Source: an uncultured bacterium
Lineage (GTDB): Bacteria; CAIJMQ01
Direction: 5' to 3'
Length of the DNA: 21,454 nt
NCBI GenBank assembly: GCA_964573245.1
Contig: CAZNJA010000021.1
Span: 1-21,454, forward strand
The translations under genes and the position numbers were made by a program. Every line of letters begins with the position of its first letter. The stretch's first letter is position 1. Shown one piece after another: positions 493-21,454 of the stretch. The notes beneath the pieces were generated by a model, which searched no databases, was not told where the DNA came from, and saw only the letters and a list, made by a program, of their open reading frames with translations.

Positions 493-574
493 CCCGTTAG
501 AAGCCTGCCTCGACAGCAAGACGGGTAAGTCGCCAGAGATAACTGCCACACCTTTGATGTGGACTTCTAATGGG
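493..574. mobile_element. Family A miniature palindromic element with a nested 22-nt hairpin (504-525)
   Basis: Termini ACCCGTTAGAAG (492-503) and CTTCTAATGGGT (564-575) pair 11/12. Removing 504-525 leaves a core matching the panC copy at 50/60 positions. Confidence 0.85.
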
Positions 575-575
575 T

Positions 576-2021
576 CTAATTTTTATGAAACCGTCTTGAT
601 CTATTGTTCCCTGTCCGTTCGCCACTGCTTCCATGGCGGGTTGACGAGGATGAGCGATTGCGTTTATGGGAGAATCGGCTGGGGCGTGAACCGCCTGAAT
701 GAGAACTCCCTGAGCGTGAACCACTTGGGTGTGAACCACCTGTGCGCGAACCACCTGAATGAGGACTCCCTGAGCGTGAACCACTTGGGTGCGAACCACC
801 TGCGCGTGAAGTGCCCGAATGAGAACGGTTGCGAGAATGTGACGACCCCTTATATCTGCCTGGAGAAAATTTATGAGCGCGGGCAGGAGGAAGGTCAGCC
901 GGAAGCGGTGAAATCGGAAGACTTTTTCTTATCAGACGTTCAATACGGTACAAATCACGCCGCTGCTGGGAAGTTGCGAATGAAATAGCATGTCCGTTAG
1001 CGCCGGCGCGGGCCGTTCGTCCGATTCGGTGCACATAATCTTCAGAGTTATCCGGAAGGTCATAATTAATTACCAGTTCAATGCCGATTACATCAATACC
1101 TCTTGAAGCAACATCGGTGGCTACTAATACGCGATATTTCCCTGATTTAAATCCTTGAAGCGCCTCACGGCGTTGGAAAAGGGAGCGGTTGGAATGAATC
1201 TCTGCGGCTCTATGTCCAATACTGCAAAGCACCTTCGTAAGTTTGCTTGCTCCGTGTTTTGTCCTTGTAAAAATAAGTGTCGGGCCGGAATATTGTTTGA
1301 GAAGTTTTTCCAATAGACGGGATTTCAAATCTTTTGAAATAATAAAAATTTCCTGTGTTACCTGTTTAACTGTTGTCCCGGTAGGAGCAACCTCTATTCT
1401 AATCGGAACTTTCATGTATTTCGTAGCCATATTCATAATTGCGTGAGGTATTGTCGCGGAGAAAAGCATTGTTTGTCGCTCACGCGGAAGCGCGTTGAAG
1501 ATTTGTCTAATTTGGGGCTCAAATCCCATGTCTAACATACGGTCTGCTTCATCAAGTACGACAATAAGAACATTTGCAAGCCGCACTGTTCTTTGCTCTA
1601 AATGGTCATTTAAACGACCCGGAGTAGCTATAATAACATGTGGATTTCTGTTAAGCGCTTGTATCTGGGGGCGTATTGACGTACCTCCGATAATAACAGC
1701 CGTTTTTAATCTCATATCTGCGCCGATTTGATGCAACGCTTCGTCAACTTGTATGGCAAGTTCCCGCGTGGGAACCACCACCAAGCCGCGCCCTTTTACT
1801 TGACATAGCTTTTGAAGCATCGGGATGCCAAACGCAATTGTCTTACCGGTGCCCGTCTGGGCAATACCTACTACATCCTTGCCCTGTATTGCTACCGGCA
1901 TGGCTTGACTTTGAATCGGGGTAGGTTCTTTATAGTTTAATTTTTCCAGTGTTCTTAAAAAACTAGGCATGATGCCCAGCCCAGAAAAAGCCGTATTTTG
2001 ATGTTGATGGTTTTGACTCAT
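576..2021 (-). CDS. DEAD-box ATP-dependent RNA helicase (RhlE/CshA-like) with a Ser/Gly/Arg-rich tail
   Basis: Motifs PTPIQ, AQTGTGKT, PTRELA, TPGRL, DEAD, SAT, ATDVASRGID, HRIGRTAR. Confidence 0.95.
   Translation of the reverse strand: MSQNHQHQNTAFSGLGIMPSFLRTLEKLNYKEPTPIQSQAMPVAIQGKDVVGIAQTGTGKTIAFGIPMLQKLCQVKGRGLVVVPTRELAIQVDEALHQIGADMRLKTAVIIGGTSIRPQIQALNRNPHVIIATPGRLNDHLEQRTVRLANVLIVVLDEADRMLDMGFEPQIRQIFNALPRERQTMLFSATIPHAIMNMATKYMKVPIRIEVAPTGTTVKQVTQEIFIISKDLKSRLLEKLLKQYSGPTLIFTRTKHGASKLTKVLCSIGHRAAEIHSNRSLFQRREALQGFKSGKYRVLVATDVASRGIDVIGIELVINYDLPDNSEDYVHRIGRTARAGANGHAISFATSQQRRDLYRIERLIRKSLPISPLPADLPPARAHKFSPGRYKGSSHSRNRSHSGTSRAGGSHPSGSRSGSPHSGGSRTGGSHPSGSRSGSSHSGGSRPSRFSHKRNRSSSSTRHGSSGERTGNNRSRRFHKN
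684..810 (-). repeat. Coding tandem repeat, about 2 x 60 nt built from 15-nt subunits, in the helicase tail
   Basis: 684-743 closely matches 744-803. Encodes SRAGGSHPSGSRSGSPHSGG / SRTGGSHPSGSRSGSSHSGG. Confidence 0.9.
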
Positions 2022-2257: not shown

Positions 2258-2613
2258 TGGTGGAGGTGACGGGAATCGAACCCGTGTCCATAGAAAAGCT
2301 CCTAAAAGGCAGCTACACGCTTGTTCCTTATTTTAGTTTAATTTCTCTCCTCTCCCAAGGACAAGATAAGAAAGAAACGAGTCTGGTTTTTTGTCCTTCT
2401 TGCCCTTCAGACCGAGAACAAGAAGTAAGCCCGTTTTCCTGCATCCTTAATGCCCAACAGGCAAAAGCGTATAAGGATGTCGACCGCTTTGTTAAGCGGC
2501 GAAAGCTACAGCTTCTTCAGCTTTTGTATTTTGTCAGGTTTTAACGAGGCCTCCTGACAACCTCGGCGTGCTCCTTTTAGCCGCTTGCTCCATGTCGATG
2601 CCTTGGCACCCCC
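2258..2613 (-). ncRNA. ssrA: tmRNA (transfer-messenger RNA)
   Basis: 5' GGGGGTG pairs with 3' CACCTCC-ACCA, including the G3-U alanine identity pair. T-loop GGTTCGATTCC. Tag frame at 2521-2492 encodes AEEAVAFAA*. Adjacent to smpB. Confidence 0.95.
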
Positions 2614-3324: not shown

Positions 3325-3395
3325 TTCCCTCTGCAATTTTAAAAATTGCGAGGACTTAGTCCCTGAAATTGCAAAGCAATTTCTAGGGGTAATTT
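3325..3395 (-). repeat. Family C double-hairpin element embedded in an AT-rich array
   Basis: Hairpins at 3328-3353 and 3361-3388. Minus-strand ends AAATTACCCCTAGAAATT and CAGAGGGAA match the ends of the 18021-18098 element. Confidence 0.7.
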
Positions 3396-3425
3396 TTTAT
3401 TTTTGATATTTGATATTAAGCGAAG

Positions 3426-4570: not shown

Positions 4571-5521
4571 TTACCCAATTATCATATTATCTATCAACCG
4601 CACTTTACCTATTCGGACCGCAAGTAATATTACCACTTCCCCGGTTATTTTTTTAACGGGTCGCAATGTTTTGGGTTCTCTTATTTCGATGTAATCGATA
4701 TTTAACCCTGCATCGTCCCGCCATTGTATCAGTGGCGGGTCTGGTGCAGGGCTTTCTTTCTTTATCATTGTTTGCATTCTTTTCTTAACTTTTTCGGCAT
4801 CGGTTGAGCCGTTTTTTATTAATTTCTTTGCTTCAATTAGTGAACGATAAAGAATTGTTGCGGATTTACACTCTTCTCTGCTTAAGTATGCATTTCTTGA
4901 ACTTTGGGCGAGGCCGTCTTTTGCCCTTACGGTTGGTAAGGTTTTTATTTTTGTATCTATGTTAAGGTCTTTGACCATTTTTTTAATTATGACTGCCTGC
5001 TGATAGTCCTTCTGTCCGAAATAACTCTTGTCCGGCTGGACGATGTTGAATAGTTTCAGCACGACAGTTGTAACGCCTCTAAAATGTCCGGGGCGAATTT
5101 TTCCTTCAAGAATACTGGATAATCCTGTTTCCTCCACATAGGTTGAGAAATTGTCGGGATTCACCCCGTTAGAAGTAAGTCGCCCAGGGCGACTGCCACG
5201 CCTTTGGTGTGGACTTTTAACGGGGTACATGTCTTCAACTGATGGGGCAAAGATTATATCAACACCTTCTTTTTTTGCGATGGTGTTATCGTGAGAGAAA
5301 TTTCTCGGATATTTTTTGTAGTCCTCTTTTGGCCCAAACTGCGTAGGGTTGACGAATATGCTTAATACGACGATGTCGTTTTCTTTTCGCGCTTTTTTTA
5401 TAAGCGAAACGTGTCCGTCGTGGAGCGCGCCCATTGTCGGGACAAAACCTATTGTTTTGCCTTTCTTTTTAAGGGTTTTTATTGTTGATGTTAATTTGTG
5501 TGGGGATTTAATTACTTTCAT
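4571..5521 (-). CDS. panC: Pantoate--beta-alanine ligase with two in-frame palindromic inserts
   Basis: GFVPTMGALHDGH, SIFVNPTQF, RPGHFRGVTTVV, FGQKDYQQ, DGLAQSSRN, RLIDN. Confidence 0.97.
   Translation of the reverse strand: MKVIKSPHKLTSTIKTLKKKGKTIGFVPTMGALHDGHVSLIKKARKENDIVVLSIFVNPTQFGPKEDYKKYPRNFSHDNTIAKKEGVDIIFAPSVEDMYPVKSPHQRRGSRPGRLTSNGVNPDNFSTYVEETGLSSILEGKIRPGHFRGVTTVVLKLFNIVQPDKSYFGQKDYQQAVIIKKMVKDLNIDTKIKTLPTVRAKDGLAQSSRNAYLSREECKSATILYRSLIEAKKLIKNGSTDAEKVKKRMQTMIKKESPAPDPPLIQWRDDAGLNIDYIEIREPKTLRPVKKITGEVVILLAVRIGKVRLIDNMIIG
4706..4751. mobile_element. In-frame palindromic element with a nested hairpin (4717-4739) in the panC C-terminal domain
   Basis: Outer arms CCCTGCATC and GGTGCAGGG; inner CCCGCCATTG-TAT-CAGTGGCGGG; flanked by TTAA at 4702-4705. 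Confidence 0.8.
5164..5225. mobile_element. Family A element, in frame in panC
   Basis: Termini ACCCCGTTAGAAGT and ACTTTTAACGGGGT pair 13/14. Two internal hairpins. Adds 22 aa between MYP and DNFSTYV. Confidence 0.9.
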
Positions 5522-5533
5522 GTTCTTTTAATA

Positions 5534-5608
5534 TGTCATTGCGAACAAAGTGAAAGGAGTGTGGCAATCTCACAAGATTGCTTCGTCGTTACACTCCTCG
5601 CAATGACA
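5534..5608. repeat. REP/RPE-like intergenic palindrome of the TGTCATTGCGA...TCGCAATGACA type
   Basis: Perfect 11-bp terminal inverted repeats (5534-5544 and 5598-5608) and an internal GCAATCT/AGATTGC stem. Confidence 0.85.
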
Positions 5609-5617
5609 GTATATTGT

Positions 5618-11809: not shown

Positions 11810-12933
<1,124 letters not shown>

Positions 12934-15702: not shown

Positions 15703-16674
15703 ATGAAGATAAAAGCAATCGCTCTAATTTCAGGTGGGTTGGACAGTGTTTTAGCCGCGAAGATTATATCCAAACAGGCAATTGAAGTTATTGGCGTAAG
15801 TTTTTTAACTCCGTTTTGCGGAAATAATTTTGAGAAAAACATTAACTCTTTGTCTAAGGAATTACATATAGACATGAGGTTGGTGGATATCTCTAAAGAT
15901 TTTTTGCAAATGTTGGCGTCCCCGCGTTACGGCTACGGCAAAAATTTGAATCCTTGTATAGATTGTCGGATACTGGAATTGAAAAAGGCGCATCAATTAA
16001 TGAAGGAATTAAAAGCGGGTTTTATTATTACGGGTGAGGTCTTGGGGCAACGTCCAATGAGCCAAAATAGAAACGCGATGGAACTTATAGAAAAGAAAAG
16101 CGGAGTCGAGGGTTTACTTGTTAGGCCTCTTTGCGGCAAGCTATTTGCTCCTACTATTGCCGAAAAAGAGGGGTGGATAGATAGAAATGGACTTTTGGAC
16201 ATAAACGGCCGCTCGAGAAAAAGACAATATGAATTGGCAGGCAAATACAAAATTTCCGGGTATGGCGCACCGGCAGGCGGTTGCCTTCTTACCGACCCGG
16301 GTTTTAGTTTGATAGTAAGGGATCTCCTTCAATCTGATATGCTTGATATCGGCTCCATAAATTTAAGTAAAACCGGTAGATACTTTAGTATTACCGATTC
16401 TTTTAAATTAGTGGTTGGCAGAGACCAAGAGGACAACCTAAAACTTTTGGAACTTGCCAAGAAAGAGGATGTAATCCTTGAACCGCAATCAAAGGGTCCG
16501 GTTGCAATAGGTAAGGGAAAGAGAGAAAATGAAAACCTTCAAGTAGCATGTCGGATAGTTGCTTATTATTGTAAAAAAACAGACGTAGATGTAAAGGTTT
16601 CTTATGACGGGAAAGAAAAAACAATAAATTGTGCTGGAATTGGTAAATTGGAATTGTCAAATTATAGAGTTTGA
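15703..16674 (+). CDS. ThiI/MnmA-like PP-loop tRNA sulfurtransferase-family protein
   Basis: SGGLDS PP-loop, NPCIDCR, TGEVLGQRPMSQ, RPL, PAGGCLLT. No N-terminal THUMP domain. Confidence 0.85.
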   Translation: MKIKAIALISGGLDSVLAAKIISKQAIEVIGVSFLTPFCGNNFEKNINSLSKELHIDMRLVDISKDFLQMLASPRYGYGKNLNPCIDCRILELKKAHQLMKELKAGFIITGEVLGQRPMSQNRNAMELIEKKSGVEGLLVRPLCGKLFAPTIAEKEGWIDRNGLLDINGRSRKRQYELAGKYKISGYGAPAGGCLLTDPGFSLIVRDLLQSDMLDIGSINLSKTGRYFSITDSFKLVVGRDQEDNLKLLELAKKEDVILEPQSKGPVAIGKGKRENENLQVACRIVAYYCKKTDVDVKVSYDGKEKTINCAGIGKLELSNYRV

Positions 16675-16676
16675 AA

Positions 16677-17765
16677 ATGAACCCCGTTAGAAAACCTACG
16701 AGGAGCTTGTTTGGGTTTTTCAAAGTAAGGAGCAAAAAAATGTCTAAGATGTGTAATGCAGGGGGAGGAAAATTTTCTAACGGGGTGAATAACATTGTTC
16801 GAAAAATAAATGATTTAAAAAAGAAAAGAAATGCTGTAATACTGGTTCATAATTATCAATTGCCAGAGGTTCAGAACATCGCGGACTTCTTAGGTGATTC
16901 TTTAGGGTTGAGCCAGAAAGCAGCGGAAACAGATGCGGAAGTAATCGTGTTCTGCGGCGTGCATTTTATGGCGGAGACGGCATCAATCCTCTGTCCCGAT
17001 AAGATTGTGCTCATACCCGAACTAGCTGCCGGCTGCCCGATGGCGAATATGATTGATGCCGAAGAGGTGCGTAATTTAAAGAAAAAACATCCCGATGCCA
17101 CTGTTGTTGCTTATGTAAACACAACCGCCGAGGTGAAAGCGGAGAGTGATGTCTGCTGTACTTCGGCAAATGCCGTTAAAATAGTTGATTCTTTGCCTGC
17201 TAAAAAAATCATTTTTATTCCTGATAAATATTTAGGACAATATGCTGCAAGTCAGATTAATCCCGTTAGAAATAAATCGCCAGAGGCGATTGCCTCCGAT
17301 GGGTATCGGAGAATTTCTAACGGGACAAGCAAAGAAATAATATTCTTTGAAGGGTACTGCCCTATTCATGTCAAGATTTTGTCGGAAGATATCTTAAGGG
17401 CAAAAAAAGAACATCCTTCTGCCGAAATACTTGTTCATCCCGAATGCACTCCGGATGTAATTGCTATGGCAGACAAAGTGTTTTCAACAACCGGTATGCT
17501 TAACTATGTTAAAAAGACCAAAAGCGAAGAAATAATCATCGGGACTGAAGTAGGAATCGTTTACAGGTTGCAAAAGGAGAATCCGGATAAAAGTTTTTAT
17601 CCCGCTTTCAAACATGCAATTTGCGAAGATATGAAGAAGAACAATTTAGAAAAAGTGCTCTGGTCATTGGAAGAAATGAAATATGAAATAAAAGTGGATG
17701 AACAAATAAGGTGGAAAGCAAAAAAGGCAATTGAGAAAATGTTAGAGTATAGTAGAACAGATTAA
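16677..17765 (+). CDS. nadA: Quinolinate synthase NadA with two in-frame palindromic inserts; start uncertain (16677, 16740 or 16785)
   Basis: HNYQ, GDS, FCGVHFMAE, AGCPMA, YVNT, CCTSANA, PDKYLG, CPIH, HPEC, GTE, CEDMK. Confidence 0.95.
   Translation: MNPVRKPTRSLFGFFKVRSKKMSKMCNAGGGKFSNGVNNIVRKINDLKKKRNAVILVHNYQLPEVQNIADFLGDSLGLSQKAAETDAEVIVFCGVHFMAETASILCPDKIVLIPELAAGCPMANMIDAEEVRNLKKKHPDATVVAYVNTTAEVKAESDVCCTSANAVKIVDSLPAKKIIFIPDKYLGQYAASQINPVRNKSPEAIASDGYRRISNGTSKEIIFFEGYCPIHVKILSEDILRAKKEHPSAEILVHPECTPDVIAMADKVFSTTGMLNYVKKTKSEEIIIGTEVGIVYRLQKENPDKSFYPAFKHAICEDMKKNNLEKVLWSLEEMKYEIKVDEQIRWKAKKAIEKMLEYSRTD
16682..16785. mobile_element. Family A element (104 nt) inserted at nadA codon 2 with a perfect TGAA duplication
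   Basis: Perfect 14-bp inverted repeat ACCCCGTTAGAAAA / TTTTCTAACGGGGT. TGAA at 16678-16681 and 16786-16789. Confidence 0.9.
17261..17325. mobile_element. Family A element, in frame inside nadA
   Basis: Perfect 13-bp inverted repeat TCCCGTTAGAAAT / ATTTCTAACGGGA, plus two perfect 7-bp internal hairpins. Adds about 23 aa. Confidence 0.9.
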
Positions 17766-18020: not shown

Positions 18021-18098
18021 AAATCACCCCGAGAAATTCAAAGAATTTCCGGCCCCTAGAAATGCAGAGCATTCCACGGGGAAAGATTCCAGAGGGAA
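18021..18098 (+). repeat. Family C element containing a 29-nt CCCC...GGGG hairpin (18053-18081)
   Basis: 18021-18073 matches 21401-21453 at 52/53 nt. Contains a GAAATTC-AAA-GAATTTC hairpin. Confidence 0.9.
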
Positions 18099-21401: not shown

Positions 21402-21454
21402 AATTACCCCGAGAAATTCAAAGAATTTCCGGCCCCTAGAAATGCAGAGCATTT
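21401..21454 (+). repeat. Family C element, second near-identical copy, truncated by the window end
   Basis: 52/53 identity to 18021-18073. Confidence 0.9.

Follow-up and report, generated by a model that had tools for sequence, protein, structure and literature searches.

The window analysed here, a stretch of 21,454 nucleotides, is contig C21 of the assembly G000 (1.46 Mb in 110 contigs, 38% G+C), a MAG from a small phylum represented by nine species genomes in the collection. Its nadA gene, encoding quinolinate synthase, contains in frame a short segment that is predicted to fold into a compact branched structure and that adds residues 196-218, INPVRNKSPEAIASDGYRRISNG, to the NadA protein. 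The locus therefore raises the question of what this segment is and how a housekeeping enzyme came to carry it. We propose that it is probably a copy of a non-autonomous DNA transposon (MITE) tolerated in frame. The observations behind this proposal are a repeat family with terminal inverted repeats (TIRs) and target-site duplications (TSDs), its presence and absence among congeners, a reading-frame filter and covariation in three helices.

An earlier, sequence-only reading of the window had described the nadA insert as a three-way junction, and the 13-bp stem and two 7-bp hairpins were found exactly as claimed (Table 1). The core reads CCCGTTAGAAAT ... ATTTCTAACGGG, while the outermost C/G and the 4-bp flanks are degenerate in this copy (TTAA-T...A-CAAG). 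Folded as RNA, the element has a minimum free energy (MFE) of -35.8 kcal/mol (z -5.53) and, folded as DNA, one of -25.6 (z -7.95), with none of 200 shuffles as good in either case. The panC copy in the same window has an equal shape, formed by AGTCGCC/GGCGACT and then CCACGCC/GGTGTGG (one G-T wobble) in plus-strand order. The coordinates also agree with the view that the layout is sense in nadA, on the plus strand, and antisense in panC, a gene on the minus strand.

Table 1. Elements of the repeat family in the window, their parts in the nadA insert, and the nadA gene
Feature	Positions	Strand	Remarks
Composite copy, 82 nt	493..574		Intergenic; CTAA duplication intact
Family A copy, 60-nt core, in frame in panC (4571-5521, -)	5165..5224	+	Antisense layout
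Longer-class copy, right end worn (TCTCTTTACGGGG)	11811..11913		Intergenic
nadA, quinolinate synthase	16671..17765	+	Likely ancestral ATG 16677
Second nadA element, 102-nt core 16683-16784	16682..16785		In start codon; TGAA duplication intact
Family A element in nadA	17257..17329	+	Core 17262-17324, 63 nt
5' arm of 13-bp closing stem = terminal inverted repeat, (T)CCCGTTAGAAAT	17261..17273	+	Predicted fold, covarying pairs
Hairpin 1, AATCGCC-AGA-GGCGATT	17275..17291	+	Arms 17275-17281 / 17285-17291
Hairpin 2, CTCCGAT-GGGT-ATCGGAG	17294..17311	+	Arms 17294-17300 / 17305-17311
3' arm of closing stem, ATTTCTAACGGG(A)	17313..17325	+	Predicted fold

The insert belongs to a dispersed repeat family. 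The motifs CCCGTTAGA and TCTAACGGG occur 58 and 53 times in the genome, compared with 0-15 occurrences for ten scrambled 9-mers (both strands). Pairing of the ends gave 60 elements of up to 400 nt, 41 of them with lengths divisible by three, and the 57-60 paired elements of 36-160 nt found in 1.46 Mb are small, non-coding and multi-copy. The consensus of the unit is CCCCGTTAGA(A/G)AT ... AT(T/C)TCTAACGGGG, with terminal repeats of 12-13 bp that are perfect in the nadA copy, and it runs one base past the core at each side (C...G). In the mechanism that we propose, two perfect TIRs would pair as the closing stem and one, two or three hairpin modules would lie between them, producing a T-shaped junction. 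Searched with a covariance model seeded with eight copies, the four genomes of the genus (G000-G003) gave 59, 53, 60 and 33 matches, and G004, from a sister genus of the same family, gave three; matches were counted on both strands, so that the number of sites is about half.

Compensatory changes among the copies had been taken earlier as a sign that structure rather than peptide is conserved. In an alignment made with MAFFT only (22 copies, outer stem and hairpin 1), 89.4% of the cells were paired, against 37-46% with the partner slid, and 41 cells had changed on both sides, against 19.8 in shuffles (none of 500 reached the observed count). In the second alignment (A4; model-guided, 21 copies from five genomes, 13 outside the seed), which is fitted to the structure model and made up of copies that are kin to one another, 89.3% of the cells were paired (35-45% in slid controls), both-sided change affected 18 of the 30 pairs (0/500 shuffles), double-change cells numbered 61 against 22.4 in shuffles (0/500), and the covariation score was 0.347 against 0.175 (0/500 shuffles). 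The double-changed pairs of A4 were distributed over the outer stem (7/17), hairpin 1 (5/7) and hairpin 2 (6/6 modelled). Covariation thus persists, in all three helices, in this larger set of 21-22 copies. The peptide does not share this conservation: its interior varies, because host genes read the element in either direction and in two different frames, and the recurrent PVR...SNG comes from the termini only. Covariation of all three helices also favours a different account of the family, in which a structure-reading enzyme would mobilise the element in the form of folded single-stranded DNA, or through RNA. The candidates are a Y1 transposase of the REP-associated or IS200/IS605 type, or a hairpin-specific ssDNA nuclease of the Ssn (GIY-YIG) kind with the element as its target. 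We regard this route as unlikely, and the traces left by insertion are among the reasons.

Exact 4-bp direct repeats were found one base outside the core in 16 of the 57 elements examined in this genome (three of the 60 rows were excluded for a length above 160 nt or a nested end), whereas 2000 permutations of the partners gave 3.8 on average and 10 at most, and exact direct repeats of 5 or 6 bp were found in none of the 57. The duplicated sequences were TTTA (seven times), TGAA, TCAA and TTCA (twice each) and TTGA, TAAA, CTAA and CAAA (once each), giving a pattern of TNNA, 4 bp long and directly outside the CCCCGTTAGA...TCTAACGGGG termini. Metagenome contigs retrieved with a 16-nt end tell the same story: of 88 ends, 77 had a partner no more than 400 nt away and 11 had none, and an exact 4-bp repeat was present at 28 of the 77. 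Distances to the partner were 65, about 121-125 and about 277-281 nt. An exact repeat was also seen in 11 of 38 regex candidates from five genomes that belong to other lineages, chance matches counted in. The nadA insert itself has no intact TSD (TTAA/CAAG).

The size of the insertion could also be read from orthologous sites. Filled and empty sites differ by 69 nt in nadA (63 + 6) and by 66 nt in panC (60 + 6). Between a site in contig C8 of G000 and its counterpart in contig C23 of G003 the difference is 66 nt, with TAAA once in the empty site and twice in the filled one, and the comparison of C39 of G000 with C56 of G003 gave 75 nt (69 + 6). These values fit a mechanism in which insertion would duplicate a 4-bp TNNA target, each event adding the core plus two plus four bases. 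Staggered duplications of 4 bp are a product of double-strand cut-and-paste DDE transposases, and to our knowledge the Y1/HUH transposases of single-stranded DNA make no target-site duplication. TIRs combined with a TSD of fixed 4-bp length are characteristic of a MITE that a DDE transposase moves in double-stranded form. The family would accordingly be mobilised in trans by an enzyme of this class that cuts with a 4-bp stagger and may be of the IS1380/piggyBac kind.

The search for structure-reading enzymes pointed in the same direction. Among 18 Y1_Tnp loci (L101-L118, from 11 genomes searched with PF01797), none was bracketed by the element; at L109, the sole Y1 locus with a clear end pair, the copy lies inside or beside a long Y1-like ORF rather than bracketing it, and the locus was discarded as a candidate. 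The host does encode a Y1_Tnp-like domain protein of 436 aa as well as six small stand-alone GIY-YIG frames, and Ssn nucleases bind dispersed hairpin repeats in many phyla, according to the part of PMC11893778 available to us, which adds to the case for movement as folded single-stranded DNA or via RNA. However, the Y1-like protein shows, by inspection, DKVY where the HUH motif is expected, G001 has copies of the element and no Y1_Tnp match, only one of the six GIY-YIG genes is within about 300 nt of a copy, and the termini carry neither a GTAG nor a CGTC tag. A GIY-YIG/Ssn link was likewise set aside, as the genes showed no association with the copies and the termini are unlike the NTS consensus in the available part of that source. 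The step from a conserved fold to recognition of folded single-stranded DNA or RNA during mobilisation, which the sequence-only reading had taken, is thus not supported, in view of the 4-bp TSDs and of the Y1_Tnp loci, none of them bracketed. The folded form, as a DNA hairpin or cruciform, may still play a part in transposition.

Comparison among relatives revealed both clean absences and internal changes. NadA of G003 and G004 is without exactly residues 196-218, that of G001 has a 22-residue counterpart of the insert and that of G002 a 10-residue remnant. G000 and G002 share the panC insert, whereas G001 and G004 lack it. In all, the sites in nadA, panC, C8, C39, C2 and C32 were filled in one species and empty in another. 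At the panC site, the copy of G002 is the reverse complement of that of G000, and at the C39 site hairpin 1 of G001 differs. Such swapping or flipping of hairpin modules at orthologous sites also counts in favour of the folded single-stranded DNA or RNA route considered above. In-situ inversion between the arms, conversion from other copies, or excision followed by re-insertion would each explain part of these changes.

The hairpins themselves are worn in the nadA copy of G001, the panC copy of G002 and the copy of G004 (MFE -19.3, -22.6 and -15.8), compared with -33.3, -36.2 and -24.3 for their counterparts in G000. The nadA copy of G000, on the other hand, keeps 27 perfect pairs and has outer arms identical to those of G001, in flanking gene DNA that is about 80% identical. 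Hairpins intact in G000 and lost in G001 need conversion, re-insertion or selection in situ. Another reading is a use for the host, whether as an mRNA stem tuning the expression or stability of nadA and panC or as a functional loop peptide, and the good state of the G000 copy between diverged flanks speaks for it. So does the fact that copies with worn TSDs fold as well as those with intact ones: the fold z-scores of TSD-intact and TSD-worn copies did not separate in the short class (7 versus 27 copies, p 0.16) or in the long class (9 versus 14, p 0.20), and our data thus give no sign that structure decays after insertion. Nevertheless, we consider a host use improbable. Congeners do without the insert in the same genes, it is partly deleted in nadA of G002, the hairpins are worn in the three copies just mentioned, both orientations and two frames are used, the pLDDT of the insert is low, and the same element is found in many unrelated genes and between genes. 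Under the MITE reading, the hairpins would instead be a property of transposition-competent copies and not a host function.

We divided the 57 elements into a short class of up to 110 nt (34 elements) and a long class of 111-160 nt (23), and counted a copy as in an ORF when at least 30 codons lay on each side. By this measure 20 of the 34 short copies (59%) lie in ORFs, compared with 732 of 1000 random 63-nt windows (73%), but only three of the 23 long ones do. Long copies are thus under-represented in genes, whereas short ones occur there near the background rate, and only in harmless form. Among the 20 short copies in ORFs, 18 have a length divisible by three and no stop codon in the frame of the host gene. 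Of the 20, 15 are read as P-V-R...S-N-G and five as P-L-E...L-T-G; the remaining frame runs into TAG or TAA within the termini. As the termini are palindromic, copies in genes can be read as PVR...SNG or PLE...LTG in either orientation. Since the share of short copies in ORFs is near random, insertion seemingly does not avoid genes, and selection after insertion would retain within genes only copies that lengthen the frame by a multiple of three and bring in no stop.

The same filter bears on the idea of an intron-like removal at the RNA level, which would yield a protein without the insert. The long closing stem brings both junctions together, as such a process might use, and nothing direct speaks for it. 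We consider it very improbable, because a filter that leaves 18 of 20 copies in frame and stop-free would serve no purpose if the mRNA lost the insert; nor did any Rfam family apart from tmRNA (2258-2613) reach the gathering score across the window. At the DNA level, contigs from two metagenome runs contain the nadA insert in unaltered form, and a joint lacking it at 17262-17324 was not seen in the metagenome DNA contigs. Joints at 16693-16774 enclose different letters and belong to other copies of the repeat. The runs listed as carrying the nadA stretch are salt-marsh metagenome DNA runs, with no RNA run among them. A NadA protein carrying the insert would contain the peptide PVRNKSPEAIASDGYRRISNG.

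The insert was said to lie shortly before a conserved cysteine (GYCPIH), and we could place it 12 residues ahead of Cys230, which is invariant in 29 NadA sequences and aligns to the cysteine of GHCYVH in solved NadA chains. We take Cys230 to be a ligand of the cluster. The solved chains align to NadA in two stretches broken at the insert. In the AlphaFold model (mean pLDDT 86.5), residues 1-35, 200-207 and 216-218 have values below 50, whereas those on both sides of the insert are at 95 or above. The 23 extra residues are modelled, at low confidence, as a detour that separates a helix from the strand leading to Cys230, and the remainder of the fold is predicted to be intact.

Residues 1-35, the other low-confidence part, are encoded by a second element in the same gene. 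It landed in TGAA of the nadA start region (copies at 16678-16681 and 16786-16789), and the frame opened by the old ATG at 16677 is now 36 codons longer. An in-frame GTG at 16785, which would yield the native NadA N-terminus, is formed by the last G of the element together with the right-hand TGAA duplicate, and the element also carries AAGGAG and an in-frame ATG (16740).

Which transposase mobilises the family was approached from the side of the ends as well. In the ISfinder tables, elements of the IS1380 family have direct repeats of 4-5 bp and ends starting with CC. In our sampled genomes they start with CCCG or CCTG and have AT-rich duplications of 3-5 bp, for example CCCGGATATTTC... with TTAG/TTAG, or CCCGAAAAATGC.... 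The family is treated as the prokaryotic outgroup of piggyBac in the accessible part of PMC10813416. We searched the NF033539 profile in the genus, in five repeat-rich genomes and in the 401 genomes. No IS1380-family gene was found in the genus, nor did searches of the family for DDE_Tnp_1 (PF01609) and rve (PF00665) give a gene with matching ends there, and the CCCCGTTAGA end was present at none of the 30 IS1380 loci examined in other genomes. At one locus, L263, an IS1380-like ORF adjoins a copy, with ends not common to both. The search for DDE_Tnp_1_7 (PF13843) gave no gene in the genus or family, and its controls were blank too, so that it says nothing. TSD-matched end pairs 400-6000 nt apart were absent from this genome, and no full-length autonomous unit surrounded the 88 ends in metagenome contigs. 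A parent IS with equal ends was therefore not found in this genome, in the genus, at the 30 IS1380 loci or in the metagenome contigs. This is weak counter-evidence, because MAGs often lose IS copies, and an IS1380-like transposase as partner is a tentative lead only.

A bolder form of that lead is a new IS1380/piggyBac-like transposase acting on hairpin ends, with precise excision and copies re-entering the same TNNA sites. We hold this to be doubtful, although it would explain at once the flipped panC copy, the exchanged C39 hairpin and the clean empty sites. If true, it would mean a horizontally shared and reversible supply of in-frame loop cassettes in the housekeeping enzymes of several phyla.

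Paired termini were found in 24 of 401 sampled genomes, G000 included, compared with two of 401 for a reversed-pattern control. Within the phylum, the strict pattern was confined to the four genomes of the genus (4/9 genomes). High-scoring three-way copies with flanks of their own, TSDs and in-frame positions are present in G163, G318 and G164; these flanks show no similarity to G000, so the contigs are not mis-binned. That distant lineages have these termini in common suggests that a transposase as yet unseen has spread horizontally. In the literature searched, neither 13-mer end had a literal occurrence, and the 9-mers occurred only in unrelated papers among the matches listed.

Several known systems share part of this picture. 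The ends resemble those of IS1380/piggyBac elements in starting with CC(C)G beside an AT-rich 4-bp target duplication, and differ in that CCCCGTTAGA was absent at the 30 loci and no IS1380-family gene was found in the genus. With the REP and REPIN sequences linked to RAYT, and with palindromes tagged with GTAG or CGTC, the family has in common short GC-rich hairpin modules that show compensatory changes, are often paired and are sometimes intragenic; unlike them, it has target duplications, no GTAG/CGTC terminal tag and no linked Y1 gene. The terminal T-shaped hairpin of parvoviruses (AAV) exists in flip and flop forms. By analogy, our elements may be described as an outer palindrome closing two small inner ones, with both hairpin orders seen here in two species at the same place in panC; the analogy, drawn from a single locus, implies neither a replication-origin role nor descent. 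From Ssn-related motifs, as far as they are described in the available part of PMC11893778, the family differs in termini that are not the CGTC...hairpin NTS consensus and that do not flank a GIY-YIG ssnA homologue.

The closest likenesses are to MITEs and to the RPEs of Rickettsia. Like the prokaryotic MITEs Correia, Nezha and QMITE, as presented in the accessible part of PMC10969869, the elements have TIRs and a TSD, are non-coding, number tens of copies and are present or absent among relatives. They are set apart from other MITEs by interchangeable covarying hairpin modules arranged in a T shape, by short variants in frame in coding DNA and by a parent IS that was not found. The RPEs, for which we know of no clear TIR or TSD signature, offer the nearest parallel for life inside genes. 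They too are palindromic dispersed repeats in frame in unrelated housekeeping genes (Ogata et al. 2000, 2002, cited through the available part of PMC10969869), where they add extra loop peptides to host proteins that are seemingly intact, translation being predicted in our case. In the same part of that source, RPEs are described as about 100-150 bp long, restricted to Rickettsia and conserved in peptide. Our family has cores of 45-102 nt, clear TIRs and 4-bp TSDs, copies read in both orientations, and termini that recur in several distant lineages.

The element family is probably a MITE with a T-shaped palindromic body, tolerated in frame like the RPEs of Rickettsia. It accounts for odd inserts and N-terminal extensions of 20-36 residues, which matters for the annotation of uncultured genomes. 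NadA, struck once at its start codon, where the start was rebuilt, and once 12 residues before a conserved cysteine, is a test protein for insertion tolerance. The family offers a clean case, with explicit TIRs and a 4-bp TSD, of selfish DNA becoming extra loops in essential enzymes.

The 102-nt copy of the family A element (the MITE-like palindromic repeat) that lies in the nadA start codon contains AAGGAG and an in-frame ATG (window 16740), and recreates an in-frame GTG at 16785. A similar copy of 101 nt, with AAGTAAGGAG...ATG, was found elsewhere in G001, another species of the same genus (G001:C11:57789-57889). The two copies may represent a subfamily with its own ribosome-binding site.

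The metagenome contigs fetched with the element end (L240-L318) added a size class of ~277-281 nt, bounded by the element ends, to those of 65 nt and ~121-125 nt. On one of these contigs (L263), a 449-aa IS1380-like ORF was located ~460 nt from a short element copy, with no ends in common between the two.

The CCCC-N-AGAAAT theme of the element termini is also present in the simple hairpins that form the other family of the sequence-only reading, two copies of which are 98% identical. A 15-nt unit is repeated about 11 times in tandem at window 669-833, within long overlapping ORFs on both strands near 497-988.

Coordinates of the features in the window and in the source genome (G000; C, contig)
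Feature	Location	Strand	Remarks
tmRNA gene	window 2258-2613	-	tag peptide AEEAVAFAA
Simple hairpins, stems CCCCGAGAAATT and CCCCTAGAAATGC	window 18025-18075, 21405-21453, 3378-3401		
Inverted repeat GTCATTGCGA...TCGCAATGAC	window 5538-5609		between panC and next gene
Element in nadA start codon	window 16678-16789 (with flanks)		TGAA duplication intact
Small GIY-YIG frame 1	G000:C1:10068-10280		~210 nt from CCCGTTAGA element
Small GIY-YIG frame 2	G000:C1:26126-26347		
Small GIY-YIG frame 3	G000:C27:11452-11649		
Small GIY-YIG frame 4	G000:C23:234-437		
Small GIY-YIG frame 5	G000:C14:13250-13456		
Small GIY-YIG frame 6	G000:C30:13244-13474		
436-aa protein, N-terminal Y1_Tnp-like domain (32.7 bits)	G000:C12:23859-25169 (L101 1429-2739)		

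The 436-aa Y1_Tnp-like protein of the source genome seems, from its sequence, to be devoid of the HUH motif. The fusion partners of its Y1_Tnp-like domain are a membrane-spanning stretch and a C-terminal domain; the latter recurs in an adjoining 202-aa protein. At a Y1_Tnp locus of another species of the genus (G003, L109), a pair of CCCGTTAGA/TCTAATGGG ends (1838-1900) lies ~60 nt downstream of the domain match. In addition to UvrC, the 1.46-Mb source genome carries six stand-alone reading frames of the GIY-YIG type, all small (91-114 aa), and a CCCGTTAGA element was found near frame 1 only, with none near the other five.

In four metagenome runs, the summed contig depth over window 5575-5609, part of the inverted repeat beside panC, was ~290-1860 against ~5 in the surroundings, and dozens of loose ends occurred at both of its edges; this repeat is therefore common to many organisms of the community. 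The inverted repeat resembles, by eye only, the CGTC-tagged or Ssn-related hairpin motifs of a paper on Ssn (GIY-YIG) nucleases and dispersed hairpin repeats (PMC11893778).
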